IMG/VR virus record: IMGVR_UViG_3300028591_000077
Direction: 5' to 3' (one strand)
Length of the DNA stretch: 64,000 nt
DNA from: a virus
Lineage: Duplodnaviria > Heunggongvirae > Uroviricota > Caudoviricetes
A model generated the notes under the pieces. It did not search any database, had not been told where the DNA came from, and was given only the letters and a program-made list of their open reading frames with translations. Shown one piece after another: positions 2,741 to 18,576 of the stretch; the first letter of the stretch is position 1; the number at the start of each line of letters is the position of its first letter. The position numbers and the translations under genes are program-made.

Positions 2741-2848
2741 ATGAGACATTCAGTTATTACATTACAACGCACAGCAACAACCGTAGCGACATTAGATATA
2801 GCCGCTGCGATTTTAGACGTGCAAGATTCTGGAGGAATCCACAAGTAA
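2741..2848 (+). CDS. Leader peptide 1 (35 aa, MRHSVITLQRTATTVATLDIAAAILDVQDSGGIHK)
   Basis: Follows GCTAAATT motif; codons 5-29 are only V/I/T/L/Q/R/A/D, matching the downstream tRNAs. Confidence 0.8.
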   Translation: MRHSVITLQRTATTVATLDIAAAILDVQDSGGIHK

Positions 2849-3029: not shown

Positions 3030-3105
3030 GGTTCCTTACGTCAATTGGGAGACTATCATCCTTACAAGATGAAGGTTGCAGGTCCGAGTCCTGCAGGGAC
3101 CACCA
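3030..3105 (+). tRNA. tRNA-Val(TAC)
   Basis: Cloverleaf, CCA, T-loop TCCGAGT. Confidence 0.9.
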
Positions 3106-3110
3106 ATTAT

Positions 3111-3186
3111 GCTGGTTTAGCTCAGTTGATAGAGCAGCTCCCTCGTAAAGAGCAGGTCGGGAGTTTGAGCCTCTCAACCAGCACCA
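3111..3186 (+). tRNA. tRNA-Thr(CGT)
   Basis: Cloverleaf, CCA, T-loop TTTGAGC. Confidence 0.85.
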
Positions 3187-3190
3187 ACAT

Positions 3191-3265
3191 TGGGATGTAG
3201 CCAAGCGGTAAGGCAGGAGGCTTTGAACCTCCGATGCGCTGGTTCGAACCCAGCCATCCCAGCCA
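3191..3265 (+). tRNA. tRNA-Gln(TTG)
   Basis: Cloverleaf, CCA. Confidence 0.95.
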
Positions 3266-3499
3266 ATTAGAATATGACAGCCGAAAAGATCGCCACTTAG
3301 TAAGCTTGAATAGAGTAGGACTGATAGCTTCCGAATAAGCTATCATGTATAACATGCTGAGACAAGATTCTCAGAAGGGTTGACTTGACGCCATAGGTTC
3401 AAGCAGAGGGTACAGCGCAATTTCTACGTAGTTGTTGCCGAGGCCAAATAGTGCAGGCATGGGAAGAAAGCACTCTAAAAAATGTGCAACACCAGATAT

Positions 3500-3574
3500 T
3501 GAGAAGTCGTCAAGCGGTAAGACGCCTGTCTCTGAAACAGGTCATCGATGGTCCGAATCCATCCTTCTCAGCCA
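3500..3574 (+). tRNA. tRNA-Gln(CTG)
   Basis: Cloverleaf, CCA, T-loop TCCGAAT. Confidence 0.9.
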
Positions 3575-3665
3575 TTACCTATTTGCTCATACTAGTTGAG
3601 AGCAGACAAAAAAGAACGCTAGGTGAAACAAATTTTTAAAGGTTTAGGTTTGGAGTAGCCAATTT

Positions 3666-3750
3666 GCGGGTGTGGTGAAACAGGTAGACGCAAGGGACTT
3701 AAAATCCCTCGGCTTCGGCCGTGTCGGTTCGAGTCCGACCACCCGCACCA
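3666..3750 (+). tRNA. tRNA-Leu(TAA)
   Basis: Long variable arm, CCA. Confidence 0.95.
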
Positions 3751-3753
3751 TAT

Positions 3754-3814
3754 GGGTTTATAGTAAGCTCTGGTGAGCAAGCGCGCAAGTTCGGTTCGAT
3801 TCCGGAATAAACCC
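3754..3814 (+). ncRNA. tRNA-like RNA lacking an anticodon arm
   Basis: GGGTTTAT/ATAAACCC acceptor, GCTC-TGGT-GAGC D-like arm, TTCGG-TTCGATT-CCGGA T arm. Confidence 0.55.
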
Positions 3815-3920
3815 TAAACCAAGAATGGATTCTGGTGAATCCGAGTAGGTGAAGAAGAGTTCGAGTCTCTGAACTGTCTGGTTCGATTCCTGGCAGTGCA
3901 GGTGCAAATCCTACAACATT

Positions 3921-3995
3921 GGTCGTATAGCTCAATGGCAGAGCGGGCTCCTTATAAGGGCTAGGTTCCTGGTTCGAATCCAGGTGCGACCACCA
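3921..3995 (+). tRNA. tRNA-Ile(TAT)
   Basis: Cloverleaf, loop CT TAT AA, CCA. Confidence 0.9.
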
Positions 3996-3999
3996 ATAT

Positions 4000-4074
4000 G
4001 GGCCGATAGTTTAATTGGGAAAACACCCGCCCTGCAAGCGGGAGTTACGGGTTCAATTCCCGCCGTGTCCACCA
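4000..4074 (+). tRNA. tRNA-Ala(TGC), irregular acceptor stem
   Basis: Loop CC TGC AA, G3:U70 present, bulged acceptor. Confidence 0.6.
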
Positions 4075-4079
4075 AATAT

Positions 4080-4155
4080 GGGGCTGTAACTCAGCTGGGA
4101 GAGTGCCTGCTTTGCAAGCAGGATGTCGAGGGTTCGATCCCCTTCAGTTCCACCA
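4080..4155 (+). tRNA. tRNA-Ala(TGC)
   Basis: Canonical cloverleaf, CCA. Confidence 0.95.
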
Positions 4156-4364
4156 AGGCGAAGGACAACGCTTAATAACCAGTCTCATAAGCGAGAGTAT
4201 GGGTAACCAGTCCCAGAGGGTAGTGAAAGAGACAAGAATATAAGGAAAGAACCGGGATTACGCCTTATCGCGAATGGGCGCCCAATGAACCCCTAGAGAC
4301 GGTGAAGCTGCAGACTAGATAACGAGCTAAGGGGAAGTGTGGAGTAAATACCTTATATTATCAT

Positions 4365-4440
4365 GCCGCCATAGCTCAACTGGCAGAGCAATCGCCTTGT
4401 AAGCGATAGGTTGATGGTTCGATTCCGTCTGGCGGCACCA
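4365..4440 (+). tRNA. tRNA-Thr(TGT)
   Basis: Canonical cloverleaf, CCA. Confidence 0.95.
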
Positions 4441-4568
4441 GTTCAGATATTTCTGAATCGTGAGCTGACACGTATAAATCCGACACAAAGCCGCAAGAAA
4501 TGGGCGGCAACACTAATTAGTCGTAGGTGACGGACACCAGAACAAAATCAGCATCATATAACTAAATT

Positions 4569-4642
4569 GCCTCTTTAGTTAAATGGTATAACGAATCCAT
4601 GGTAAGGATTAATCGGCGGTCCGATTCCGTCAAGAGGCACCA
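4569..4642 (+). tRNA. tRNA-Thr(GGT)
   Basis: Cloverleaf, CCA, T-loop TCCGATT. Confidence 0.9.
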
Positions 4643-4650
4643 TTAAATTT

Positions 4651-4725
4651 GGGTCAGTAGGCTAACGGTTAAACTGTCGCACTGTCACTGCGATGTCGAG
4701 GGTTCGACTCCCTCTTGGCCCGCCA
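4651..4725 (+). tRNA. tRNA-Asp(GTC)
   Basis: Cloverleaf, GCCA end. Confidence 0.9.
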
Positions 4726-4730
4726 TATAT

Positions 4731-4826
4731 GCAGTTGTGATGCAACTTAGAAGACATCCTTGGTGATGAGCCGAGGTCAACGCAAATCGAAATAATTTGT
4801 TGAAGGTGCAAATCCTTCCATCCGCA
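4731..4826 (+). pseudogene. Degenerate class II (Leu-like) tRNA
   Basis: T arm GAAGG-TGCAAAT-CCTTC, mismatched acceptor, non-canonical anticodon loop TGATGAG, no CCA. Confidence 0.5.
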
Positions 4827-4833
4827 ACAATTT

Positions 4834-4908
4834 GGAGTCATAGTACAGCGGTTAGTATACCTGACTGTCACTCAGGAGATGAGGGTTCAACTCCCTCTGG
4901 CTCCGCCA
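4834..4908 (+). tRNA. tRNA-Asp(GTC)
   Basis: Cloverleaf, GCCA end. Confidence 0.95.
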
Positions 4909-4911
4909 TTA

Positions 4912-5036
4912 GAACCAGTACTTATTTCTTTTTCGCCTTACATGCGAGAGGTCGTTGGTTCGAGTCCAACCGTCGCGGCACGGGTGACGTGTAGCGACGT
5001 AGCTCAGTTGGGAGAGCGCTTATTACTAGTCTGGTC
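4912..5036 (+). ncRNA. Bulged-stem element 4: circularly permuted tRNA-Val(TAC) body with closed acceptor hairpin
   Basis: 3' half (anticodon, T arm, CGTCGC) at 4934-4976 precedes 5' half (GCGACG, D arm) at 4994-5020; ACCAG/CTGGT stem. Confidence 0.85.
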
Positions 5037-5043
5037 AAAATTT

Positions 5044-5119
5044 GGGGTTGTAGCTCAATTGGGAGAGCACTTGTCTGGCAGACAAGAGGTTGCGGGTTCA
5101 ATCCCCGTCGATTCCACCA
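5044..5119 (+). tRNA. tRNA-Ala(GGC)
   Basis: Cloverleaf, CCA. Confidence 0.9.
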
Positions 5120-5123
5120 ATAT

Positions 5124-5201
5124 ACCCTGTTAGCTCAGCTGGATTAGAGCGTGTGGCTACGAACCACAAGGTCGTGGGTTCGAATCCTACACAGGGTGCC
5201 A
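5124..5201 (+). tRNA. tRNA-Arg(ACG)
   Basis: Cloverleaf, CCA. Confidence 0.9.
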
Positions 5202-5313
5202 AAAAAATTATACAATACTATTTACTTTTTAGAAAAAATATTGTATAATATAATAAGCGAGCAAAAAAGATTCGCTAAATTAAGTAGTCGCAAGACAGAA
5301 AGGTAGTTAACGT

Positions 5314-5403
5314 ATGAAAAACTTGAACATGCATGCTTATCATTACGGATTTGAAGGCTATGAAGGCTTCGGTTTTTTGATGCGCTCTGACCACCGATAT
5401 TAA
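5314..5403 (+). CDS. Leader peptide 2 (29 aa, MKNLNMHAYHYGFEGYEGFGFLMRSDHRY)
   Basis: GAAAGG RBS; codons 9-23 are only Y/H/G/F/E/L(TTG)/M, matching the downstream tRNAs. Confidence 0.85.
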   Translation: MKNLNMHAYHYGFEGYEGFGFLMRSDHRY

Positions 5404-5437
5404 TTAGTAAATTCGTCGCATTGAAAATATAAAACAA

Positions 5438-5469
5438 GGGTGGTCAGATAATGATCACCCTTTAATTTT
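5438..5469 (+). terminator. Attenuator terminator 2
   Basis: GGGTGGTCA-GATAA-TGATCACCC-TTTAATTTT; 5439-5448 is the exact complement of 5386-5395. Confidence 0.85.
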
Positions 5470-5471
5470 AT

Positions 5472-5556
5472 GGGTAGGTAGGTAAGTGGCTAAAACCAGC
5501 TGTCTGTAAAACAGCCGCCTTCGGCTTCGTGTGTTCGAATCACACCCTGCCCACCA
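5472..5556 (+). tRNA. tRNA-Tyr(GTA)
   Basis: Long variable arm, CCA. Confidence 0.9.
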
Positions 5557-5560
5557 CTAT

Positions 5561-5646
5561 GGGAGCGTATTCCGTTAAGGACACGGGGCAGTCTGTAAAA
5601 CTGTTGCCATTCGGCTGGCTGAGTTCGATACTCAGAGCTCCCACCA
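5561..5646 (+). tRNA. tRNA-Tyr(GTA)
   Basis: Long variable arm, CCA. Confidence 0.85.
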
Positions 5647-5650
5647 ATAT

Positions 5651-5727
5651 GGTGTATGGAATCCGACGGTTTTGGATGCTAGTCTGTGAAACTAGATCAT
5701 TGGGTTCAACTCCCAGCATGCACCCCA
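5651..5727 (+). tRNA. tRNA-His(GTG)
   Basis: G-1:C73 pair, CCA. Confidence 0.85.
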
Positions 5728-5732
5728 GTCAT

Positions 5733-5808
<76 letters not shown>

Positions 5809-5812
5809 TTAT

Positions 5813-5889
5813 GCTCCTCTAGCCCAACTGGTAGAGGCAATGAGCTCAAACCTCATTCAGTGTCGGTCCGAATCCGACGGGGAGTACCA
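5813..5889 (+). tRNA. tRNA-Leu(CAA), short variable loop
   Basis: Loop CT CAA AC, 5-nt variable region, T-loop TCCGAAT. Confidence 0.85.
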
Positions 5890-6030
5890 AAAAGATTATA
5901 AAATACTTACCAAAGTATTGTATAATATAATAGCTTCAAAGTGCTGGAAGTTGTGGCACGCGTATTGAGAGGTTGCAAACTCGAAAATATGAGGGGTTAG
6001 GTAGGGTCTGACTGAAGCTTCCATTTACAT

Positions 6031-6116
6031 TGCGGTAGAGTGGAACGGACAATTATAAACCATCCGCGGCTCATAACCGATGGGATACCGGGTTCGACTC
6101 CCGAGTACCGCAACCA
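6031..6116 (+). tRNA. tRNA-fMet(CAT)-like, enlarged D loop
   Basis: Ends CCGCAACCA as initiator tRNAs do; loop CT CAT AA. Confidence 0.7.
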
Positions 6117-6210
6117 GAGGCGTGTTGTTTGTCAATTTAAACCTTACCTCGCGCACAAGGCGTAAAAATTGAAGGCTTAAGATGTTGTGCCAGAACAAAG
6201 CATCATCCAT

Positions 6211-6286
6211 GGCCGAGTAGCTCAGCGGTTAGAGCAGGGAGCTCATACCTCCAAGATCGGTGGTCCGAATCCACTCTCGGCTACCA
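6211..6286 (+). tRNA. tRNA-Met(CAT), probably elongator
   Basis: Loop CT CAT AC, ends GGCTACCA, T-loop TCCGAAT. Confidence 0.85.
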
Positions 6287-6363
6287 GGATATATATTCAA
6301 TTTCGCCAAGACTAGAGCACAGCCATTCATAAGGGCTGTGTAGGAGAATCCCTTGGCAACCAT

Positions 6364-6437
6364 GCAGACGTAATTCAATGGTAGAATGCCACCTTGCCAT
6401 GGTGGCTACACGGGTCCGATTCCCGCCATCTGCTCCA
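6364..6437 (+). tRNA. tRNA-Gly(GCC)
   Basis: U73 CCA, T-loop TCCGATT. Confidence 0.85.
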
Positions 6438-6557
6438 TCAATAGAATTAACAAAGGCCACGTTAATTTCAGTGAAACTCTGATAGTGGAAGACAGAATCT
6501 AAAAAGTAGCCGTCGAGCAAGCAGGCTCCACAATAAATAAACATCGCTTGCCACCAT

Positions 6558-6632
6558 GCGGGTATCGTCCAACGGTCAGGGCCTCTGCCTTCCAAGCAGA
6601 AGATACCGGTTCGATTCCGGCTACCCGCTCCA
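6558..6632 (+). tRNA. tRNA-Gly(TCC)
   Basis: Cloverleaf, TCCA end. Confidence 0.95.
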
Positions 6633-6704
6633 CCAGGACAGACAGAGATTAGGTTCTCTGTGAGGTTCTACGGCTGGACAAATCGATAAAACCAGCCAAT
6701 ACTT

Positions 6705-6778
6705 GCGGGAATAGGACAGTGGTAGTCCATCTGCTTGCCATGCAGACTACGCGGGTTCGATTCCCGTTTCCTGCTCCA
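6705..6778 (+). tRNA. tRNA-Gly(GCC)
   Basis: Cloverleaf, TCCA end. Confidence 0.9.
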
Positions 6779-6784
6779 TTAAAT

Positions 6785-6862
6785 CGTCCCGTAGACGAAC
6801 TGGTTAAAGTCATCACCCTTTCAAGGTGAAATCTGGGGGTTCGAGTCCCCTCGGGATGACCA
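6785..6862 (+). tRNA. tRNA-Glu(TTC)
   Basis: Cloverleaf, CCA. Confidence 0.9.
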
Positions 6863-6874
6863 TTTAAAATTTTA

Positions 6875-7101
6875 GAGCCTATACTTATTTCTAGGACTGA
6901 AAATCCCCGTGTCCCTAGTTCGAATCTAGGCTCTCCCACCATAGGAGCCAATACTTATTTCGGATTCCGCGGTAGCTTAAAAGGTAAAGCCCCCGATCTA
7001 TAATCGGGAGATTGTCGGTTCAAGTCCGACCCATGGCATTGTGAGTTTGGCCACTTTGGGAGAGTAGCTCAGTTGGTAGAGCAGGAGTTAATAGTTAGGC
7101 C
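6875..7101 (+). ncRNA. Bulged-stem element 5: circularly permuted tRNA-Phe(GAA) with a nested element
   Basis: 3' half with CCA at 6894-6941, 5' half GGGAGAG+D arm at 7058-7085; outer GCCTA/TAGGC stem. Confidence 0.9.
6945..7052 (+). ncRNA. Nested bulged-stem element 5b enclosing a tRNA-Ile(TAT)-like cloverleaf (about 6966-7038)
   Basis: GA GCCAA T ACT TATTTC ... AGT TTGGC C; CCCGA-TC TAT AA-TCGGG anticodon arm, T arm, no CCA. Confidence 0.8.
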
Positions 7102-7243
7102 TTTTTTATTAAAAAATATCGTATTATATAAAGAAACGAAAAATATTCGCTAAATTATTTGGTACTTGTCTTCCTTAGCGGTACGACTTAATCCAGGGAT
7201 ATTCAGGAGATATTACCGATACAAAGATTAAGCAAGAAAGATT

Positions 7244-7323
7244 TAGACTAAACTTATTTCAAAGCCTTAGTCCCACAGGGACTATATAAAAATGAAGATC
7301 AAAATTGGCCGCACAGTTAGTCA
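7244..7323 (+). ncRNA. Bulged-stem element 6
   Basis: GACTA A ACT TATTTC ... AGT TAGTC. Confidence 0.7.
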
Positions 7324-7456
7324 AAGTATTGTTCTAAAATTGTTTATAATACGCCTGAGTGGTACGACTTGTTGGAACTTATAATTAAAACCTCGTTCGC
7401 GATGCAGCTAACAAAGAGCGTCAATTAATTATAAGGAAAGATAAGCAAAAAGGGCA

Positions 7457-7529
7457 GAAACTACACTTATTTCAAATTTTTCTAATCTACACTTACCATA
7501 GAAAAATTGGCCACGACAATAGTTAGTTC
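7457..7529 (+). ncRNA. Bulged-stem element 7
   Basis: GA AACTA C ACT TATTTC ... AGT TAGTT C. Confidence 0.7.
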
Positions 7530-7562
7530 GTATTTCATAAAAAATATCGTATAATATTTATA

Positions 7563-7645
7563 GAGCTTATGCTTATTTCAAATGGTTATAGAAGGTTCGA
7601 TTCCTTCACCGTCCGCCAATCCCGGACAGTGATATTAGCTAGGCC
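7563..7645 (+). ncRNA. Bulged-stem element 8: permuted T-arm/acceptor mini-helix with GCCA
   Basis: GAAGG-TTCGATT-CCTTC-ACCGTCC-G-CCA then GGACAGT; GCTTA/TAGGC stem. Confidence 0.75.
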
Positions 7646-7735
7646 AAAAAAATATTTGTAAAAAAATTAAAAAAATATTTACAAAACAAAAAAAGTATTG
7701 TATAATATTTATGTAAGCAAGTTAAGCAAGCTTGC

Positions 7736-8342
7736 TTCGAGTGTTCTTTGAGAAAGGATTTATGTTGAACCATGTGCAGAGGGATTACCTCCTTGCATGG
7801 AAGTTGGCTAAATAACGCGATAAATTGTGGGATACTGCAATGTAAGCTAAGACCTGTATTGAAAGATACGGGTATTCCTGTCAAAACGTGATCATTGACA
7901 GGCTAAGCTGATTGTGCAACATGTTATGGTACACAAAGCAATTCTGTCTAGGCTCGTCCGATAAGAGGCTCTGGGAGCAATCTCATCCCGCCTGTGGAAT
8001 TAAGCCTGAGAAACTTAGTTCCCGGCATCTCAACCTAAGGATAGTGACGTTTTGAAGCGGCGAAAGCCGTGTATAAGAGCTGACAGAAGTACGAGTAGCC
8101 GTATGACGTCGTTCGATCAAGTATAAAATTGAAGAATGTGATTAATTTCTTCCTTGCTGAAGTTCGGTGAAAGTTGGGGGACATCAATTCCCTCTATTGT
8201 TCGGTGCTAGTCACCAATTTGTGAAGACCAAGGTCGCGCCTTGGCTCTCAGCCACAAGTTAATATGTGCGAATATGTGGAATAATAAGTGTTGTAAGATG
8301 AATAAAAGTCTCGCTTAGATCATTTCTCAAAGAATACTCGAA
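7736..8342 (+). ncRNA. About 600-nt structured ncRNA (ROOL-like candidate)
   Basis: 20-bp terminal helix 7736-7755/8323-8342, promoter immediately upstream, many internal hairpins, no ORF. Confidence 0.65.
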
Positions 8343-8393
8343 AAATAAAATGCTAAATTAATTAGACAAATGTGTCAGAAGGAGAGCAAAAGT

Positions 8394-8480
8394 ATGTTAA
8401 GATTAGCTTCTATCAACGTTAAGCCTATTAGCATTCTCAAACCAGTTTGGGAAAATTTTGACATGCTTGTAGCTCAGTAA
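8394..8480 (+). CDS. Leader peptide 3 (28 aa, MLRLASINVKPISILKPVWENFDMLVAQ)
   Basis: AAGGAG RBS after GCTAAATT; I/V/K/P/W-rich core matches the downstream tRNAs. Confidence 0.8.
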   Translation: MLRLASINVKPISILKPVWENFDMLVAQ

Positions 8481-8518
8481 AGACCGTAAGTCCGATTAAA
8501 TCAATTAGACAAAAGATC

Positions 8519-8553
8519 CCCGCAGAGACTACAAGCTCTGCGGGTTTTATTTT
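8519..8553 (+). terminator. Attenuator terminator 3
   Basis: CCCGCAGAG-ACTACAAG-CTCTGCGGG-TTTTATTTT; 8525-8536 pairs with leader 3 end 8465-8475. Confidence 0.85.
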
Positions 8554-8631
8554 CGGGAAGTAGCGTAGCTTGGTTATCGCGCCTGATTTGGGATCAGGAG
8601 ATCAAGGGTTCGAATCCCTTCTTCCCGACCA
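8554..8631 (+). tRNA. tRNA-Pro(TGG)
   Basis: Canonical cloverleaf. Confidence 0.95.
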
Positions 8632-8632
8632 A

Positions 8633-8747
8633 GAGCTCATACTTATTTCTAGCATTGGGAGCCGGTGTTTGCAGGTTCGAGTCCTGCCTCCCCGACCATT
8701 ATCGGGGAGTAGGCAAATTGGTAAAGCCGCTGTTTAATAGTTGAGCC
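8633..8747 (+). ncRNA. Bulged-stem element 9: circularly permuted tRNA-Pro(TGG)
   Basis: 3' half with CCA at 8652-8698, 5' half CGGGGAG+D arm at 8703-8732; GCTCA/TGAGC stem. Confidence 0.9.
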
Positions 8748-8767
8748 TTAAAAAATCTATTATTATA

Positions 8768-8829
8768 GAGCCTATACTTATTTCCGCCAAGAGGCAATTT
8801 CCTTTTAAGAAATCTATGATAGTTAGGCC
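8768..8829 (+). ncRNA. Bulged-stem element 10 with a Lys(TTT) anticodon stem-loop
   Basis: ATTTC-CT TTT AA-GAAAT at 8797-8813. Confidence 0.8.
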
Positions 8830-8835
8830 ATTAAT

Positions 8836-8911
8836 GGGCTCTTAGCTCAGTTGGGAGAGCATCTCCTTGACGTGGAGAGGGTCGTCAGTTCGAGCCTGGC
8901 AGAGCCCACCA
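8836..8911 (+). tRNA. tRNA-Val(GAC)
   Basis: Cloverleaf, CCA. Confidence 0.95.
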
Positions 8912-9011
8912 TTAATAGAGAATATTAGGAGAAGGAAAACTCCATAAACCCTTATAGCTTCGTTCTTAGCCAGACGTAGACTAAGATAGAGTTAAACTAA
9001 TGATACAATAT

Positions 9012-9088
9012 CCGGAGTTAGTTCAGTTTGGTAGAACACTTGATTTGGGATCAAGGGGTCGTGAGTTCGAATCTCACATTTCGGACCA
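9012..9088 (+). tRNA. tRNA-Pro(TGG)
   Basis: Cloverleaf, CCA. Confidence 0.9.
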
Positions 9089-9092
9089 ATAT

Positions 9093-9169
9093 TGGAGCGT
9101 AGCTCAGTCGGTCAGAGCGCTGTGCTGATAACGCAGAGGTCGCCGGTTCGATCCCGGCCGCTCCAACCA
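9093..9169 (+). tRNA. tRNA-Ile(GAT)
   Basis: Cloverleaf, CCA. Confidence 0.95.
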
Positions 9170-9173
9170 ATAT

Positions 9174-9247
9174 AGGGGCTTGGTATAGTGGCCGTGCCTT
9201 GGTCTCCAAAACCAATGAGGTGAGTTCGATTCTTACAGCCCCTGCCA
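9174..9247 (+). tRNA. tRNA-Trp(CCA)
   Basis: A1:U72, G73, loop CT CCA AA. Confidence 0.9.
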
Positions 9248-9252
9248 AACAT

Positions 9253-9329
9253 ACTCCCTTAGCTCAGCTGGCCAGAGCAACTGACTCTTAATCAGTGGGT
9301 CCAGGGTTCGAATCCCTGAGGGAGTACCA
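9253..9329 (+). tRNA. tRNA-Lys(CTT)
   Basis: Cloverleaf, CCA. Confidence 0.95.
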
Positions 9330-9351
9330 ATTTATGAGGAGGTCGATATTA

Positions 9352-9555
9352 ATGAGATTCAATTGTAGAGTAATCTGGGTTGATCCTGTTAAGAATCGTC
9401 GTCAGTTCACAGACGTCGGTCCAAGTTATGCAATCTTCATCGCCAAAAAGAAAGTTAGCGAAGGAATGCAAGACGTAACGATTCAAGTAACTGGCGAAGA
9501 CGGCGACGACCCTTCTGACTGTAGTTGGCCACCAATTGATGCTGAGGTGGCGTAA
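9352..9555 (+). CDS. Hypothetical protein (start revised from the track)
   Basis: AGGAGG RBS before ATG 9352; the longer ORF start overlaps a tRNA. Confidence 0.6.
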   Translation: MRFNCRVIWVDPVKNRRQFTDVGPSYAIFIAKKKVSEGMQDVTIQVTGEDGDDPSDCSWPPIDAEVA

Positions 9556-9589
9556 ATAAACAATAAGCATTAGAAATGGAGAAAAAGCT

Positions 9590-9658
9590 ATGATGAAAAT
9601 GACACTAAAACTCAAATCCAAAAAACTCAAACGTTTTCGTTGTGGCTTAATTGCTTAG
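9590..9658 (+). CDS. Leader peptide 4 (22 aa, MMKMTLKLKSKKLKRFRCGLIA)
   Basis: GGAG RBS; six AAA codons plus CTA, CTC x2, TCC. Confidence 0.8.
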   Translation: MMKMTLKLKSKKLKRFRCGLIA

Positions 9659-9692
9659 GATTCAACGTCATCTTGATTATGAATGTATTGAC

Positions 9693-9728
9693 TGCCGAGG
9701 TAATTAAGCTTATCTCGGCATTTATTAT
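9693..9728 (+). terminator. Attenuator terminator 4
   Basis: TGCCGAG...CTCGGCA-TTTATT; 9698-9709 pairs with leader 4 end 9645-9656. Confidence 0.75.
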
Positions 9729-9803
9729 GCGTCCATAGCCAAGCGGTATGGCAATCGGCTTTTAACCGATGTACCGGGGGTTCGAATCCTCCTGGGCGCA
9801 CCA
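9729..9803 (+). tRNA. tRNA-Lys(TTT)
   Basis: Cloverleaf, CCA. Confidence 0.9.
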
Positions 9804-9807
9804 TAAT

Positions 9808-9886
9808 GCGCGCTTAGCTCAGTTGGTTTTAGAGCATACGACTTTTAATCGTAGGGTCCGGAGTTCGAATCTCCGAGCGCGCACCA
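9808..9886 (+). tRNA. tRNA-Lys(TTT)
   Basis: Cloverleaf, CCA. Confidence 0.95.
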
Positions 9887-10003
9887 ATTAGCTATCTCAT
9901 CTTACAATTACGATACACGTGGCGGACAGGAATCACAAAAAGCGGGTTCTTTTGTAAGATTGGATATATTAATACTGTATAATATATAGAAGGAGTTGCT
10001 AAA

Positions 10004-10183
10004 ATGGAAAAAGAAAAAGTAAATTATTGTTTACCAATTGATTTCCCGATGTATGACATGTGTCATTGTTGTGCTGATTGCGCTACGCTGTGCGCTCGTA
10101 AAAATGCGCCTGTAGAACGTATCTGTACTATGAGTGATTTCAGCTCTATATGCTCTAGTTATACAGCAAAAGAAGAAAAGTAG
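10004..10183 (+). CDS. Small Cys-rich protein (59 aa)
   Basis: AAGGAG RBS, promoter upstream, CHCCADC..C motif; not in the ORF track. Confidence 0.6.
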   Translation: MEKEKVNYCLPIDFPMYDMCHCCADCATLCARKNAPVERICTMSDFSSICSSYTAKEEK

Positions 10184-10184
10184 T

Positions 10185-10529
10185 ATGTTTGACAACGATT
10201 TTGATGATGATTTAGATGAGTTATTGCTTAATGCAAAACCTAAATTGCCTGACCCTTACTTTGACCCAAAATATCCTGAGATTAAAGAGGGTGTTAAGTT
10301 TACACCAATTGAACGCAGTATAGAATATTCTGTCTATACAATCAAAGACGCTCATGCAGTAGACAACAAAGTTAAGGTAAGCGAAGTTATCTATACTTGG
10401 GGCACAGGCTATTATTCAAGGCTAAATAAAACGCCATTTGAATGCGAGCTAGACAGAGACGATTTGTGCAGTTCGCATAGCCCTGCTTGCCAAGGCAAAA
10501 AGAAAACATTTAATTGGAGACAGAACTAG
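10185..10529 (+). CDS. Hypothetical protein
   Basis: ATG directly after the previous stop; 3' end overlaps tRNA-Ser(CGA). Confidence 0.55.
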   Translation: MFDNDFDDDLDELLLNAKPKLPDPYFDPKYPEIKEGVKFTPIERSIEYSVYTIKDAHAVDNKVKVSEVIYTWGTGYYSRLNKTPFECELDRDDLCSSHSPACQGKKKTFNWRQN

Positions 10530-10603
10530 GAGCGGCCTCCTAGCCTGCCTCGAAAGCAGAGTGTTCAGAAATGAATGGGGATCGACACCTCCTGTCTCCG
10601 CCA
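10516..10603 (+). tRNA. tRNA-Ser(CGA), 8/4 acceptor/T-stem type
   Basis: GGAGACAG/CTGTCTCC 8 bp, 4-bp T stem, G73 CCA, long variable arm. Confidence 0.75.
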
Positions 10604-10637
10604 TCATCGAAAACGTCATTGAAGAAAACTTGACGAT

Positions 10638-10725
10638 GGAGGGTAATCCTGGACAGTCTGGGGCACGCCTGGAAAGCGTTGCGTAGGAGTAATCCTATCT
10701 GAGGCGGCATCAGTGCCCTCCGCCA
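10638..10725 (+). tRNA. tRNA-Ser(GGA), 8/4 type
   Basis: GGAGGGTA/TGCCCTCC 8 bp, CTGA/TCAG T stem, G73 CCA. Confidence 0.75.
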
Positions 10726-10734
10726 AATAATTAT

Positions 10735-10818
10735 GCCCGAGTGGTGGAATGGTAGACACGCTGCGCTTAGAACGCAGTGCCGCAAGGTGTGCAGGTTCAA
10801 GTCCTGTCTCGGGTACCA
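10735..10818 (+). tRNA. tRNA-Leu(TAG)
   Basis: Long variable arm, CCA. Confidence 0.95.
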
Positions 10819-10870
10819 TAACCAAATTGGATACTGTTTGTCGAAAGGTAACCAAATTGGATACATATAT

Positions 10871-11261
10871 GGGCTCGTACTGGTTTCGATTGGTATTTGA
10901 TGTTTATAACTACAGCAAGCTGATAACTTACTATCAAACAAAAACAAACGACAAAACTTTAAACCCTGCATTTATTGCCTCCAACAGATTCGTTGGTGCT
11001 CGCGCCTAATTTAAGGCCATAGTAGTCGAGAAGTAAAACTGAGTTAGATTGGTCGAGTTTAACTCTTTATAATCAGACCTCGGTCAAGAGAACATTAGCT
11101 TTATTAGATATCTTGATTTAAATCAATAAATAAGCTATCTGCGCGCCCCGTTGTGTTTGAAAAGGAGCGGACAGAGAAATATTCATGAACACATAAAGCT
11201 GTAATTGACGTTATAGGGGTTTGGTATCAAGACCGGGGTTCGACTCCCCGCGGGTCCACCA
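10871..11261 (+). ncRNA. ssrA: tmRNA
   Basis: GGGCTCG...GGTTTCGA 5' end, G3:U acceptor, T arm and CCA 3' end, tag frame ...KTNDKTLNPAFIASNRFVGARA*. Confidence 0.9.
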
Positions 11262-11266
11262 TATAT

Positions 11267-11353
11267 GCGCGAGTGGCGGAACTGGTAGACGCGCCAGCCT
11301 AAGGAGCTGGTGCCCGAAAGGGCGTGTGGGTTCGAGTCCCACCTTGCGCACCA
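11267..11353 (+). tRNA. tRNA-Leu(AAG)
   Basis: Loop CT AAG GA, long variable arm. Confidence 0.9.
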
Positions 11354-11369
11354 TTATTAGGAGAAAACT

Positions 11370-11672
11370 ATGAATCTTCAAGAATTAATCGAACATGGCT
11401 ATGTAGAAAAAGTTGAAACTGAATCAACTTATTTGGGCGCTGGCTATAAAGTTTATGTAAAATTGCATAATTATTCTATTGGTAGAATTACCATTGACAT
11501 CGGTATTGATGAAAATCTTTCTGATGCGATTACTTTAATTAATAAAATGATTGAAGTTGATGAAGAAATTGGTAAGAATAAAAAGCCAAAAGAAAAGCAT
11601 ACAATCAGAAAAGCAACTGATGAAGAAATAAAAAAACTTCTTGATGATTCAAAACAAGTTTTTAAAGATTAA
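11370..11672 (+). CDS. Hypothetical protein
   Basis: AGGAG RBS, 100 aa. Confidence 0.75.
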   Translation: MNLQELIEHGYVEKVETESTYLGAGYKVYVKLHNYSIGRITIDIGIDENLSDAITLINKMIEVDEEIGKNKKPKEKHTIRKATDEEIKKLLDDSKQVFKD

Positions 11673-11690
11673 TATCGTATATTATTACAT

Positions 11691-11787
11691 AGGGGATTAC
11701 GATAATTGGCAAGTCCGTCGGTCTTCAAAACCGATCAATCCGGCTCCAACCCGGAGAGCGCGGGTTCGATTCCTGCATCCCCTGCCA
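11691..11787 (+). tRNA. UGA-decoding tRNA (anticodon TCA), Trp-like acceptor with long variable arm
   Basis: AGGGGAT/ATCCCCT-G-CCA, TCGGT-CT TCA AA-ACCGA, TCCGG/CCGGA variable stem. Confidence 0.85.
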
Positions 11788-11790
11788 GTA

Positions 11791-11847
11791 GAGCCTATGC
11801 TTATTTCAAAAACATCAGACTGCAACTCCGATTAATGAAGCTAGGCC
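11791..11847 (+). ncRNA. Bulged-stem element 11 with a Cys(GCA) anticodon stem-loop
   Basis: ATCAGA-CT GCA AC-TCCGAT; loop identical to that of tRNA-Cys at 19780. Confidence 0.8.
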
Positions 11848-11872
11848 ATTATTTTTAGAAAGGCGATAATAT

Positions 11873-12541
11873 ATGAATAAAAGAGTAAAAACGTTTCTAT
11901 TTGCAATTTTTGCCGGTATTGCCATTGGCGTCGGCGGATTGCTTTTTATTTTATCAAAAACATATATTCCAGGTAATTGGGGTAATATTGTCGGTTCGTT
12001 GTTATTCCCGGTTGGATTAATTACAATTTGCTATTGTAAATTTAATTTATATACTGGAAAAATTGGCATTGCTCCAAATAAAGGTGTAAATACTAATGAT
12101 TTGAATGTATTTGAGTGGCTAGCTTGGATTCTATTAGGCAATATTGTCGGAGCGTTTGCCTTTGGATTGTTAGTTTATCCATTCACTTTGCTTGGAGGAA
12201 GCTTCGCCGATACCGTCCATGCTATTGGGTTAGCAAGGGAAACCATGGATCCGATTTCAATGGCTGGAACATCTGTCTTATGCGGAATCTTAGTTTATAT
12301 TGCGGTTTATTTCTTCAATAAGTCTGATGAGTACTTCGGCAAAGTCGTCGGTGTCTTGGTTCCTATTGCGTTCTTCGTATTAGCCGGATTTCAGCACTGC
12401 GTTGCCAATATGTTCTATATGGCGGCTTCTGGTAGTTGGACATTGGCGTCTACTCAAGCACTAGTAGGTTGTATCTTAGGTAATTCTTTCGGTGGATTGC
12501 TTGCCAATTTGCCGGTTGTATATTTTAAAGGAGCTAAATAA
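11873..12541 (+). CDS. Formate/nitrite transporter (FNT, FocA/NirC family)
   Basis: FPVGL...LYTG and AGFQHCVANMFY motifs, multiple TM helices. Confidence 0.9.
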   Translation: MNKRVKTFLFAIFAGIAIGVGGLLFILSKTYIPGNWGNIVGSLLFPVGLITICYCKFNLYTGKIGIAPNKGVNTNDLNVFEWLAWILLGNIVGAFAFGLLVYPFTLLGGSFADTVHAIGLARETMDPISMAGTSVLCGILVYIAVYFFNKSDEYFGKVVGVLVPIAFFVLAGFQHCVANMFYMAASGSWTLASTQALVGCILGNSFGGLLANLPVVYFKGAK

Positions 12542-12789
12542 TGCAAAGATTACAAGTAAAGTATTGCAAAGGCGAAAAAGAGCTTAATGACTTCTTAATG
12601 ACCCTTGAGTTAGGTGCTGGAGAAATTAGTAAGCCACGTTTGCAAGCCATCAATTACGTTGCTGAAGTGCAGGGCAGCGGCCAAGAGTATGAAACAGAAA
12701 ATGGCACAAAGTCAACAATCAGCATGGGAAGCACAGTAATTGCAGCAGTTCAATATTTCATCAGTATTCCAGAAGAATCACACGAATAA
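12541..12789 (+). CDS. Hypothetical protein
   Basis: TAATG coupling to the upstream gene. Confidence 0.7.
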   Translation: MQRLQVKYCKGEKELNDFLMTLELGAGEISKPRLQAINYVAEVQGSGQEYETENGTKSTISMGSTVIAAVQYFISIPEESHE

Positions 12790-12827
12790 TGTGTGATTTT
12801 TTTATTTTTAATGTATAATATATAGAT

Positions 12828-13037
12828 ATGCACGAACTATTGGTTGAGATGTTGATTGTCGGTATTATTGGAATAATCAGCATAGGTGCTGGTTTATGGA
12901 TATTACTTAGAAATTGGCATGAGAAAGATTGGGAAAAACTTAGGATATTCTTTGTAGCCGGAGTAATATTCATGACATTTATGACATCGATATTCGAAAT
13001 CATATGGTTTTGTATGTATATCGGCTTACCAGTTTAA
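12828..13037 (+). CDS. Small two-TM membrane protein
   Basis: Two hydrophobic segments, promoter upstream. Confidence 0.6.
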   Translation: MHELLVEMLIVGIIGIISIGAGLWILLRNWHEKDWEKLRIFFVAGVIFMTFMTSIFEIIWFCMYIGLPV

Positions 13038-13051
13038 AGGAGAATGGAATT

Positions 13052-13168
13052 ATGATAACTATATTGGCAGTTTATGGTATCGGACTAGGGATTTTGAACA
13101 TTTTAACCCTTGGAATTCTATTCTATTTGAAATTTGGTCAAAAATTATTGGCTAAATTAAAACGGTAA
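13052..13168 (+). CDS. Small membrane peptide (38 aa)
   Basis: AAGGAG RBS, hydrophobic. Confidence 0.5.
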   Translation: MITILAVYGIGLGILNILTLGILFYLKFGQKLLAKLKR

Positions 13169-13182
13169 AATATTTACCATTA

Positions 13183-13263
13183 CATAGAAAAAAAGCACAA
13201 CCACAGTGATGTGGCGTCGCAAAGCTATAGGGCCTTGGAGGAAGGCAGCCAGTTGCTTCTGTG
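13183..13263 (+). promoter_or_regulatory. c-di-GMP-I (GEMM) riboswitch
   Basis: GCACAA-CCACA GTGA TGTGG-CGTCGCAAAGCTATAGGGCC...GGCAGCCAGTTGC matches the GEMM core; lies in the 5' UTR of the operon. Confidence 0.8.
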
Positions 13264-13305
13264 AGTTAATCATGGAAGTTTTTTATTTATAAGAAGGAGA
13301 AAACT

Positions 13306-13923
13306 ATGAAATTAAGAAACAAATTAGCAGCTATCACAGCTGCAGCAATGTTAGCATTTACTGGCGTTGGTTTTGCTGCATGGACATTTGCTAATGAAAA
13401 ATCAGCTAATGTTGGTGGAGACAATGTTGTTACTTGTGCAGTTGAAACAAAGAACTTAGTTATTGATGAAGGTTATACTAAATTATATTTAATTTTTGAT
13501 GCGCCAGCAGCTGGAACTACTGGTTCATTAAAGGCTGGTGAAGGTATTTTCTTTGCAACAGATAAAGAGCCAGATGCTGAAACCGGATTATATACTAAAG
13601 TTACATCTCTTACATTAACTGGTTCATTTGAACATACAGATAATGATGCTCATTACAACCATGCAGTAAGTTATACTTTTGATTGCACACCTACTAATAC
13701 TTTAAGTGCTACTTATGTAACACAAACAGCTGCTGGAAGCTTCGATGCAAATGTAACAGGAGCAACTTCAACTTTTACAGATGTTTCAACTGTTTACACA
13801 CTTCCAACATTTGATTATACTGCTGCGGTTAAAGCTTACAATCATGCGTCAGAAATGTCTGCTATGATTACTTCTTTAAATGACTCAGAAGTATCATTTG
13901 CATTTACGTTTAATATTGACTAA
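13306..13923 (+). CDS. Secreted protein with SipW-type signal peptide (TasA/camelysin-like)
   Basis: MKLRNK...GVGFAAWTF N-terminus; adjacent to signal peptidase. Confidence 0.6.
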   Translation: MKLRNKLAAITAAAMLAFTGVGFAAWTFANEKSANVGGDNVVTCAVETKNLVIDEGYTKLYLIFDAPAAGTTGSLKAGEGIFFATDKEPDAETGLYTKVTSLTLTGSFEHTDNDAHYNHAVSYTFDCTPTNTLSATYVTQTAAGSFDANVTGATSTFTDVSTVYTLPTFDYTAAVKAYNHASEMSAMITSLNDSEVSFAFTFNID

Positions 13924-13938
13924 TTAAGAGGTTAGTTT

Positions 13939-14757
13939 ATGAATTCAATTACGATTATAACAATAGTCGTAGTTGCACTCTTAACTGTAGTTATCTTTGG
14001 ATTAGCTTGGCTAGGTTATAGCTCTTGTTTAAAAAGCTATAAGATGGAAGTTGACCAAGGAAAGCATGATGCTGAAATATTCAAAGAGTATCATTCAAAA
14101 AAGAAAAACAAAGGAGGACTAATTGGACTTATTGGTTCATACTTAGCCCTCCTTGCTTTATCTGGGCTATTCATAACTGGAATAGTTTATAAAGCTAACG
14201 GTGAAAACTTCACCATCAATAATCAAACTGCCCTTGTGATTAAATCAGGCTCTATGTCTGAATTCTATGATGATGAACTTGCCGAACAATATCAATTACT
14301 ACATTATGATCCATCACTTCAATTTAGTGTAGGAGATATCTGTGTTTTTGAAAAAGTATCAGATGATACTAAGTTAGCTAAGGGTGACGTCTACGGCTAT
14401 AAATATAAAGATATTATTATCACACACAGATTAATAGATGAAACAGAAGACGGATTCTATAGATTTAGGGGCGATAATAATCCAGTTGCAGATCAATTAC
14501 TAATAAAACGAGAAAATATTGTTTATCATTATACTGGTAATAAGGTTCCTGGACTTGGTGCTTTTGTTTTATATGCTCAATCATATTTTGGTATGTGGTC
14601 AATGGCTGGCATTGTAGGCATAACTATTAGCTCTGAAGTGGTCTATCATAAAATAGATAAAATCAATAAAGAGCGTAATGAGCTTCTTGATCCTGGGTTC
14701 AAGTTAGAGCCTCCAAAACAAAAAGAAAGAAAGCGAGGTAAGAAGCATGAAAAGTAA
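13939..14757 (+). CDS. Signal peptidase I, SipW-like (S26)
   Basis: VIKSGSMS, GDI, ITHR, FRGDNN motifs, TM segments. Confidence 0.85.
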   Translation: MNSITIITIVVVALLTVVIFGLAWLGYSSCLKSYKMEVDQGKHDAEIFKEYHSKKKNKGGLIGLIGSYLALLALSGLFITGIVYKANGENFTINNQTALVIKSGSMSEFYDDELAEQYQLLHYDPSLQFSVGDICVFEKVSDDTKLAKGDVYGYKYKDIIITHRLIDETEDGFYRFRGDNNPVADQLLIKRENIVYHYTGNKVPGLGAFVLYAQSYFGMWSMAGIVGITISSEVVYHKIDKINKERNELLDPGFKLEPPKQKERKRGKKHEK

Positions 14758-15685
14758 ATTTTTATTGTTTCTAGCCGGTTTATTCGCTATTACTGCTTTA
14801 TTTGGGACGACTTATTCTGCTTGGGCTTTTACAAATACTACTGATGTAACCAATAATGTTCAAGTTGAAGTTCCTACTTGGACATTTGGTGACCAAGGTC
14901 TTGCCAAAATCGAAAATATTTCTGGTTTAAGCTATTTAACAGCTGAAAAAGAAGAAACTATTACGCAGGGAAGCACTGAGGCAGTTAGATTCACAAATAC
15001 CGGTGGAACTCATGCAAGAGACCATATCTTCTATGTCGATTTAGACCAAGATTATGATTTATACGATATAGCTACTTGTAAGATTGAATTTGATTACTAT
15101 CATACTTATAAGAGAGAACAAAAAGATAAAGGTTTCCCAAAACTTCAATTATTCCATGATAGTATTGGCAGAGGAGCGGCTCAAGGCGGCGATGATACAA
15201 TAACTGAAATCGCACCTTATGTTGTTACAAACATCGATGAAGATTGGTGGCATTTGGAATATTATATCACTTCTATGTGCCCAACAATTGCCGACCATCA
15301 AGATAAGCCACAAAATAACTATAAAGTAAATCGTATTAAATTTGCTGATAGAGGAGTTTATGACTACGCTGATGTAACTGGCTGGTTTGTTATGGACAAT
15401 TTAATGATTACAAATGAACCAGGGGCTAGATTAGGTCTATTTAATAGAACTGCCGGCGATACAGTTGGAAAATTCTTCTGGTTTAAGGTTGCTTGGTCTG
15501 GTGATCTACATTCTTGTATTCTTACAACAAGTGACCCAAGTTTGGCTGTTTGGGATGATGAATCTACAAAGAGCCCATTCTATGTTAAACTATTAGCAAA
15601 AGGTCAAGTTGTTATTACAGCTACCCTTGAAATTGGAAGCAATCACGAGATATTCACAATTTCTAATACAATTACAATAAATTAG
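14747..15685 (+). CDS. Secreted protein with SipW-type signal peptide
   Basis: MKSK...GTTYSAWAF N-terminus. Confidence 0.6.
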   Translation: MKSKFLLFLAGLFAITALFGTTYSAWAFTNTTDVTNNVQVEVPTWTFGDQGLAKIENISGLSYLTAEKEETITQGSTEAVRFTNTGGTHARDHIFYVDLDQDYDLYDIATCKIEFDYYHTYKREQKDKGFPKLQLFHDSIGRGAAQGGDDTITEIAPYVVTNIDEDWWHLEYYITSMCPTIADHQDKPQNNYKVNRIKFADRGVYDYADVTGWFVMDNLMITNEPGARLGLFNRTAGDTVGKFFWFKVAWSGDLHSCILTTSDPSLAVWDDESTKSPFYVKLLAKGQVVITATLEIGSNHEIFTISNTITIN

Positions 15686-15699
15686 TTGTATAATATAAT

Positions 15700-15869
15700 G
15701 TAACAGCCACACATTGCCGCCGTGGTCGGAGGAGCGGATTGATCCCCGCTTAGTACTGGATAAGGGCGGGTCTAGCCAACCTGTGCACGAAATTCTGGAA
15801 ATACAAAAGGCGATCCATAATGCAAATGTTACAAATAAAAAGAGCTTATTAAGCTCTTTTTTAATTTTT
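15700..15869 (+). ncRNA. Unidentified structured small RNA plus terminator
   Basis: Own promoter, GTAACA/TGTTAC end pairing, GC-rich hairpins, AAAAAGAGC-TTATTAA-GCTCTTTTT terminator. Confidence 0.45.
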
Positions 15870-15888
15870 TTACTGTATAATAATATAG

Positions 15889-16160
15889 TTCCCCTGTGTC
15901 GGGGGTCCTGGTGTTAAAAAGTGGTCGTCATTGCCGGCCCGGCTGCCTCAGTAAGTCGCGGTTACTGATATAACCCGGTGTCCTTGCGGACTGTTTCCAG
16001 GAATAACGAGCGCGAGCCCACCTAGTCGGAGAGTCAGACTGCAACACCTGACGTTAAATCAATGTTCCTCCGTGAATAGGCAGTGGGAGAAGAGTAGGAT
16101 ACAAATGACAGCGTGCCCGCAGAAGAAACTAAGCCTTAAAAACGTCGAAAGACGTTTTTT
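15889..16160 (+). ncRNA. Unidentified GC-rich structured RNA plus terminator
   Basis: Own -10 TATAAT, non-coding, ends in AAAAACGTC-GAAA-GACGTTTTT. Confidence 0.45.
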
Positions 16161-16362
16161 ATAAACTGGCTAAAAATATTGGCTAAATTTAAGATGCAGA
16201 ATAATTTAATAAAAAAATCTGCTAAATTATGTGTACAATATGAAAAATATATTGTATAATATGTAAAGCAAGTGAGAACTTGCGAATTAATCTTTGAAAT
16301 GATCGCCTTCATGGCCGCTTCCTGTCCTAAGTATGACGTTAAACTGCTAGATAATTTAGGAG

Positions 16363-16584
16363 GTGCCTATGAAGTATTACGTGTTAGATGGCGAAGTCAA
16401 TCGCCAGCCTATCAAGGAGAAGATGTTTGCTACTAGGGCTGCTGCTGAAAAAGCAATGGAAGGTATTCTCTACAGAGAAAATCTCCAAGTCCAAGAAGAC
16501 AGATTCCCTTCTAAGCACACCGAAGAATTCGTGTGTGACAGATGCTCTAGATTCTTTGTTCGCAGAGTTGTCTACGGTGAATAA
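16363..16584 (+). CDS. Hypothetical protein
   Basis: AGGAGG RBS. Confidence 0.7.
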   Translation: MPMKYYVLDGEVNRQPIKEKMFATRAAAEKAMEGILYRENLQVQEDRFPSKHTEEFVCDRCSRFFVRRVVYGE

Positions 16585-16589
16585 TCTAT

Positions 16590-18550: not shown

Positions 18551-18576
18551 TTAAATAAGTTAATAAGGCAAATTAA

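Follow-up and report, generated by a model that had tools for sequence, protein, structure and literature searches.

Leaders that govern amino-acid operons include trpL, hisL (with seven His codons), pheL and leuL, as well as the multivalent leaders thrL and ilvL. In classical attenuators of this kind the less stable helix forms first. The attenuators of amino-acid operons have been modeled (PMC1183508), and in mycobacteria leaderless polycysteine short open reading frames (ORFs) function as Cys-responsive attenuators (bioRxiv 10.1101/834739). Among systems in which synthesis of the decoding apparatus is tuned to tRNA charging, the pheM leader of pheST controls a synthetase, not a tRNA, and T-box riboswitches recognize uncharged tRNA by direct binding, without a ribosome. 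The reasons why phages carry tRNA genes have long been debated, with codon compensation, decay of host tRNAs and escape from anticodon nucleases as the explanations discussed. Phage tRNAs sustain translation after cleavage or decay of host tRNAs (eLife 2023, PMC10264068; Nat Commun 2024, PMC11555353); these two papers appear to concern the purpose of phage tRNAs, not a sensor that regulates their transcription. No published case of leader-peptide control of tRNA genes was found in the literature.

The window, that is, the whole stretch of 64,000 nucleotides that was analyzed, has all of its large ORFs on the + strand and encodes T4-type topoisomerase II subunits, collagen-like fiber proteins and auxiliary metabolic genes. 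A strain that is 98.6% identical to the window (L045) is represented by a 237-kb contig from sheep rumen, and DNA of the phage was present in gut runs of sheep, goat and cattle. Thus, the window derives from an uncultured giant rumen phage. When GenBank phages were searched with tblastn, the best topoisomerase match to cultured relatives was 46% identical, with Listeria and Bacillus phages. The tRNAs were the sole matches when GenBank phages were searched with the window DNA by blastn and megablast, with no close cultured relative, and collagen-like repeats were the sole matches of a 1,172-amino-acid protein in tblastn searches of GenBank phages. Relatives were located with a 651-amino-acid protein encoded upstream of the tRNA array as the anchor, and its identity to the window protein was 96% in L027, 85% in L022 and 64% in L025. 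An F420-0:gamma-glutamyl ligase-like gene and a formate-tetrahydrofolate ligase gene (714 bits), at 24266-25456 and 58277-59899, are unusual auxiliary metabolic genes.

The tRNA array comprises 43 tRNA/tmRNA genes called by ARAGORN within 3030-21800. The short ORF designated leader 2 (Table 1) is located within this array, has translation start signals and would be expected to be translated. According to the first-pass annotation, codons 9 to 23 of this ORF are limited to the amino acids of the tRNAs encoded at 5472-6862; all 15 codons are read by those tRNAs. The two Leu codons of the leader (5323 and 5377) are both TTG on direct reading, as had been reported. The run contains one or more cognate codons for each of the eight anticodon species of 5472-6862, both Gly isoacceptors included.

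Under standard wobble rules the tRNAs at 5472-6862 decode 14 codons, and this codon set of the cluster accounts for 23% of the triplets in the window. Fifteen consecutive codons from the set occur once in the six frames of the 64-kb window, followed in length by runs of 8 (twice) and 7 (three times). The segment with the highest log-odds score for the set in the window is 5329-5382. Leader 2 scored z = 6.1 with its own cluster, with 20 of 28 codons matching. Each amino acid is represented by one to four codons in the run, few in comparison with hisL, and the sensitivity to any single tRNA may thus be low.

Table 1. Leader 2, the tRNA genes behind it and the sister units, in window coordinates
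Feature	Start	End	Strand	Description
Promoter, sigma-70 type	5221	5249	+	TTTACT-17 nt-TATAAT; inside a promoter word that recurs in the phage and its relatives
Motif ATTCGCTAAATTAA	5270	5283	+	Upstream of leaders 1, 2 and 3 and of many genes; candidate second promoter
5' stem-loop GUC-GCAA-GAC	5287	5296	+	Small; near the predicted RNA 5' end; predicted fold
Shine-Dalgarno region GAAAGGTAGT	5298	5307	+	6-10 nt upstream of ATG; read from the sequence
Leader 2 ORF	5314	5403	+	ATG at 5314; 29 codons; stop codon TAA at 5401-5403
Regulatory run	5338	5382	+	Codons 9-23; 15 codons spelling YHYGFEGYEGFGFLM
Antiterminator 5' strand TCTGACCACC	5386	5395	+	Within codons 25-28; ends 6 nt before the stop codon
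Putative terminator hairpin	5436	5462	+	11 bp, loop of 5; 5' arm 5439-5448 is the antiterminator partner
U-tract TAATTTTAT	5463	5471	+	Interrupted; tRNA-Tyr starts directly after it, at 5472
Gated tRNA genes	5472	5889	+	Tyr-GTA, weak Tyr-like element (5561-5647), His-GTG (5652-5724), Phe-GAA, Leu-CAA
Internal promoter	5895	5932	+	Exact second copy of promoter word TTGTATAATATAATA at 5918-5932
Distal tRNA genes	6211	6862	+	Met-CAT, Gly-GCC, Gly-TCC, Gly-GCC, Glu-TTC; their codons are also in leader 2
Sister unit 1	2741	2959	+	35-codon ORF, apparently leaderless; antiterminator 2835-2846 with 2933-2944; terminator 2939-2959
Sister unit 3	8394	8544	+	28-codon ORF; terminator 8519-8544; before Pro/Val/Pro/Ile/Trp/Lys genes; z = 2.7
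Sister unit 4	9590	9720	+	22-codon AAA-rich ORF; terminator 9693-9720; before two tRNA-Lys(TTT) genes; z = 4.2

The hairpin that follows the ORF has a predicted stability of -16 to -17 kcal/mol (z = -5 versus shuffles), and its terminator-like form is the same as that of the terminator at a gene end at 2654-2680. The exact complementarity previously claimed between TCTGACCACC in the ORF and GGTGGTCAGA in the terminator held on direct reading. The duplex between the tail of the ORF (its last eight codons) and the 5' arm of the terminator has a predicted energy of -19.9 kcal/mol and includes a 10-bp perfect helix, with p ~0.0005 relative to 20,000 random 27-nt segments of the window. In predicted folds, RNA that extends from the predicted start only as far as 5450 forms the 10-bp antiterminator, and the full-length RNA prefers the terminator (-51.9 versus -45.7 kcal/mol with the antiterminator forced). 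The minimum-energy fold of the full-length RNA pairs 5302-5309 with 5388-5395, whereas the nascent fold prefers the antiterminator. A long imperfect hairpin is predicted across the leader 2 ORF (5311-5384).

The last nucleotide of the regulatory run precedes the antiterminator strand by 4 nt, and codons 9-18 are located more than 15 nt upstream of that strand. Judging from these distances, a ribosome stalled on codons 9 to about 18, which make up the first two thirds of the run, would leave 5386-5395 free. About three codons at the end of the run, together with the His and Tyr codons beyond it, are too near, so that a ribosome stalled on them would mask the antiterminator, which is a weak point of the model. 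Because the antiterminator strand ends so close to the stop codon, a ribosome positioned at the stop codon would also cover it.

The interpretation of the locus as an attenuator in the first-pass annotation is supported by this organization: a translatable ORF with start signals, regulatory codons cognate to the tRNAs behind it, a terminator, an antiterminator that overlaps the terminator, a register in which ribosomes would mask the antiterminator, and a layout that is found four times in the phage and again in relatives, with leaders that follow the tRNA set behind them in composition. These sequence features are statistically unusual. The element is probably a ribosome-mediated transcription attenuator of the trp/his type that gates tRNA genes, not biosynthetic genes. 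We infer that the ORF would be translated, that the hairpin would terminate transcription and that the choice between the two helices would depend on the ribosome.

In the proposed mechanism, a transcript that includes the 29-codon ORF would start at the promoter or promoters within 5221-5283 or would read in from the upstream tRNA cluster. A fast leading ribosome would reach the stop codon at 5401 and cover 5386-5395, in which case the hairpin at 5436-5462 would form and transcription would end at the U-tract, 1 nt before tRNA-Tyr. A ribosome lingering on the Tyr, His, Gly, Phe, Glu, Leu (TTG) and Met codons at 5338-5382 would leave 5386-5395 free to pair with 5439-5448 once this segment was made. 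The terminator would then be blocked and the polymerase would continue into the Tyr, His, Phe and Leu-CAA genes and then into the Met, Gly and Glu genes. Because such a switch would respond to slow decoding, the phage would raise exactly those tRNAs whose codons were decoded slowly, which would amount to negative feedback on tRNA supply.

The predicted design resembles attenuators of the trpL and hisL type in several respects: a short ORF with regulatory codons, a terminator, an antiterminator that overlaps the 5' arm of the terminator and would be under a ribosome at the stop codon, and a terminator that is the more stable helix, with the antiterminator forming first. As in thrL and ilvL, one leader would sense several amino acids. 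Unlike the leaders of amino-acid operons, the targets here are phage tRNA genes, and seven amino acids are represented by one to four codons each. Unlike trp, leader 2 has no robust or clear 1:2 anti-antiterminator in predicted folds, and thus superattenuation is not predicted. Because the untranslated RNA favors the antiterminator, read-through is predicted in the absence of translation, including in a start-codon mutant, which is also unlike trp. The Rfam models His_leader, Trp_leader, Thr_leader, Leu_leader and T-box had no match within 5200-6220 (E up to 5) or within 2400-22500 (E up to 0.01). The likeness to pheST and to T-box riboswitches is that synthesis of the decoding apparatus would be tuned to tRNA charging. 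The mycobacterial Cys ORFs are comparable in that they are short, in some cases leaderless (as unit 1 below appears to be), and in that codon-specific translation speed sets downstream expression; they differ in sensing one amino acid, in preceding protein-coding operons and in having no terminator/antiterminator pair ahead of tRNAs.

The promoter word upstream of leader 2 was the sole part of the leader region common to the related phages G001 and G003. The motif ATTCGCTAAATT is present as exact copies at 2725, 5270, 7145 and 26712 and with one mismatch at 13147, 16178, 27812, 33508, 44403, 61334 and 63173. All of these copies are on the + strand, in spacers ahead of genes and leaders, and the motif is conserved in front of the leaders of L022, L025 and L064. 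It is a candidate for a second class of promoters, with a promoter function that is putative. The ATG of leader 1 is located 5 nt past the motif, which suggests a leaderless mRNA.

The genes directly behind the leader 2 terminator had been described as a Tyr-Tyr-His-Phe-Leu(CAA) cluster. ARAGORN identified only Tyr, Phe and Leu-CAA within 5472-5889, and tRNA-His(GTG) was supported by Rfam only (41 bits). The second Tyr gene did not stand as described: the element is a weak tRNA-like match, with 30 bits to the tRNA-Sec model, below threshold. In agreement with the earlier description, no promoter is present between the terminator and tRNA-Tyr, and the next one is found only at 5895-5932. The additional promoter that had been placed near 5920, as a probable source of transcripts of the Met, Gly and Glu genes, coincides with the exact copy of the promoter word and would also feed these distal genes. 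Because the five tRNA genes at 5472-5889 have no promoter of their own, they would be transcribed only by reading through the hairpin.

Other elements of the region were also observed. A full-length ROOL RNA (Rfam RF03087; 210 bits versus a gathering score of 99) at 7746-8331 is situated inside the tRNA array, immediately upstream of leader unit 3, and has its own promoter at 7678-7706. The array also contains a tmRNA (78 bits) and a tRNA-SeC(TCA), at 10871-11261 and 11691-11787. A match to the c-di-GMP-I-UAU riboswitch aptamer at 13185-13261, upstream of an ORF at 13306-13923, reached 50 bits, below the gathering score of 65.9. The repeat AGAGCCTATRCTTATTTC is present in six copies (4901, 6934, 7552, 8757, 11780 and 19110) and heads tRNA-like elements, such as that at 6866-6947, that have an acceptor stem, an anticodon-like arm and a T arm without a D arm; neither ARAGORN nor Rfam called these elements. 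Truncated 5' halves of tRNA genes at 4985-5035 and 7058-7095, just upstream of promoter modules, may be remnants of recombination within the array. A 99-nt 'tRNA-His(ATG)' that ARAGORN called at 4730-4828, without Rfam support, could be a false call, or else a tRNA that is aberrant or has an intron.

There are three sister units in the window, starting at 2741, 8394 and 9590, in which pairings had been proposed in the first-pass annotation and were then tested. Complementarity between the tail of the ORF and the 5' arm or loop of the terminator was confirmed in units 1, 3 and 4 (p = 0.0007, 0.007 and 0.009, respectively) and thus extends to four of the four window units (p = 0.0005 to 0.009). 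The predicted stabilities of the four terminators were -15 to -17 kcal/mol. In units 2, 3 and 4 the terminator adjoins the tRNA gene and begins 33-39 nt past the stop codon. Unit 1 is less clean, with a 90-nt gap between the stop codon and the terminator that contains a promoter-like site, and with promoters also 3' of the terminator. This unit precedes a Val/Thr/Gln/Leu-TAA/Ile/Ala/Asp/Arg cluster, and 2759-2827 is the segment with the highest log-odds score in the window for the codon set of the cluster at 3030-5201. Units 3 and 4 alone are not window-wide outliers in codon match (ranks 31 and 16). The leader of unit 4 includes CTA, CTC and TCC codons and precedes Lys genes and then Leu genes. 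A 60-codon ORF at 18368 was considered as a fifth leader and was rejected, as it looks like an ordinary small protein gene and a promoter follows its terminator.

Three units with the same layout as the window units were detected in the related locus L025. One of these contains a run of 15 codons, VKTVTVKPTAARPAA, made up of Val, Lys, Thr, Pro, Ala and Arg codons, ahead of Ala, Thr, Pro, Val, Arg, Lys and Lys genes; no other run in that locus exceeds 7 codons. A second unit is the orthologue of window unit 4, with which it shares its start and its tail. The codons of these orthologous Lys-rich leaders differ along with the clusters: the window leader has Leu and Ser codons and Leu tRNAs behind it, and the L025 leader has AGA codons and precedes Arg-TCT and two Lys genes. 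Unit B of L025 was missed by the codon scan, which used strict wobble and a 1.5-kb limit, and was found only by a search for ORF-terminator-tRNA arrangements.

Each of the seven leaders (four from the window and three from L025) scored best with its own cluster, with z values of 2.7 to 6.1. The true pairing of leaders and clusters was the best of 5040 permutations of the seven units, with strict and extended wobble alike. The match extends to individual isoacceptors, as TTG codons occur with Leu-CAA (unit 2), TTA with Leu-TAA (unit 1) and AGA with Arg-TCT (L025). These results bear on the possibility that the switch senses general translation capacity or amino-acid starvation, not specific tRNAs, with codon choice merely tuning the response. 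The ribosome-free nascent fold of leader 2 is the antiterminator, so that any loss of translation would lead to read-through, and the small number of codons per amino acid in the run also fits a general sensor. However, leaders that are specific to their clusters down to the isoacceptor, with the correct pairing ranked first, argue against it. A general sensor is considered unlikely, although it is the strongest of the alternatives to an attenuator that responds to specific tRNAs.

A layout consisting of the GCTAAATTAA motif or promoter, a short ORF with a tail that pairs with a terminator arm, and a terminator that adjoins a tRNA gene was shared within the clade (window, L025 and L064). Copies of the module that contains the promoter and 5' untranslated region (UTR) of leader 2, AAAAAGATNCGCTAAATTAA, also precede the first L025 unit and, in the IMG/VR contigs L064 and L065, a unit made up of leader, terminator and tRNA. 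The leaders behind this module in L025, L064 and L065 have short peptide motifs in common, list other amino acids and precede larger clusters. The codon match of the L064 leader was not significant over the stretch that was fetched (20 of 40 codons, with a set frequency of 0.39). Most matches in the motif search of IMG/VR were chance matches, and only L064 and L065 were related. A search of IMG/VR with a degenerate DNA pattern for the leader 2 peptide found no divergent orthologue, and the contigs of the closer relatives (96%, 88% and 85% identity of the neighbor protein) end before the leader 2 region. The automatic scan for codon-matched segments before tRNA clusters returned nothing clear in L001, L004, L006, L017 (G001), L018 (G003) and L020, and no clear leaders in the more distant relatives G001, G002 and G003.

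Both L027 and L022 have unit 1, with an ORF of 35 codons in each case. Residues identical to those of the window numbered 27 of 35 in L027 and 12 of 35 in L022, and the peptide itself is thus unconserved. The antiterminator helix of unit 1 in L022 contains two fully compensatory double changes, from C-G to U-A and from A-U to G-C, and the terminator stem contains one compensatory change, from U-A to C-G. Between L027 (5161-5268) and the window (2741-2848), eight amino-acid changes are located in the middle of leader 1 despite a neighbor protein that is 96% identical. Several of these changes need two or three base changes (for example, ACA to CGC), and most stay in the codon set of the cluster. 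Thus, the part of the leader that lists codons seems to turn over quickly.

It is conceivable that the hairpin is a constitutive leaky terminator or an element for processing or stability, that the ORF is a chance frame or encodes an unrelated peptide, and that the codon match is a coincidence. The interrupted U-tract, the frequency of hairpins in tRNA arrays and of short ORFs in AT-rich spacers, and the distant relatives without clear leaders are compatible with this explanation. However, a chance match would have to account for a run of 15, against 8 for the next, in about 128,000 codon positions and directly upstream of the matching cluster; units 1 and 4 and L025 would have to show the coincidence again, and in each of the four units the ORF tail would also have to be complementary to the terminator by chance. 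A role for a conserved peptide is difficult to reconcile with the rapid divergence of unit 1, in which the peptide changes yet the frame, the length and the helices are kept. This explanation is therefore regarded as improbable.

Strain variation at leader 2 itself was limited. In L045 and in Logan contigs from other rumen samples the helices were unchanged, which means that leader 2's own helices provide no covariation. The strain changes affect the 5' UTR and the spacer that follows the ORF; the sole change inside the run, Tyr to Phe, remains within the codon set. Variants from cattle rumen have the changes 5288 T>C and 5295 A>G, a compensatory pair (U-A to C-G) in the 5' stem-loop. Contigs from three rumen RNA libraries cover leader 2; as assembled contigs they show no ends, strand or level and may include DNA.

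A further alternative is control after transcription, in which translation of the leader would govern cleavage of the precursor, 5' maturation or decay, for example through RNase III, RNase E or access of RNase P. The hairpin adjoins the RNase P site of tRNA-Tyr (5472), and one RNA-library contig spans upstream tRNAs and the leader and ends at 5478. This contig was also considered as a terminated transcript and rejected, because contig ends are not RNA ends; such ends are assembly breaks at tRNA sequence common to other organisms. Furthermore, the hairpin with its T-rich tail has the form of the gene-end terminator, and mutually exclusive helices are a hallmark of termination control, which leaves processing with little probability. 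Reversed polarity, in which efficient translation of the leader promotes read-through in positive feedback, is very improbable: ribosomes would melt the hairpin across the ORF and possibly alter downstream folding, but in each of the four units a ribosome that has reached the stop codon would cover the antiterminator strand, the untranslated RNA already favors the antiterminator, and positive feedback on tRNAs has no evident logic. All four alternatives are weaker than the interpretation of the locus as an attenuator.

More tentatively, with somewhat less than even confidence, each tRNA cluster of giant phages may be placed behind its own leader, which would serve as a checklist of codons, sense which host tRNAs are limiting and induce only the matching replacements. 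Host tRNAs might become limiting through decay after host shut-off, a mismatch in codon usage or cleavage by anticodon nucleases. If this broader scenario is correct, it would be the first example of leader-peptide attenuation of tRNA genes and would represent a built-in sensor of host immunity that targets tRNAs. The proposed attenuator would extend textbook attenuation from amino-acid operons to RNA genes and to viruses, and such leaders would provide compact natural sensors for the availability of single tRNAs. With the codons of the downstream tRNAs spelled out in its sequence, such a leader would show that decoding speed exerts feedback control on the synthesis of these tRNAs. Because the leader would name the tRNAs that the phage expects to run short, the question of why phages carry tRNAs would become directly testable.
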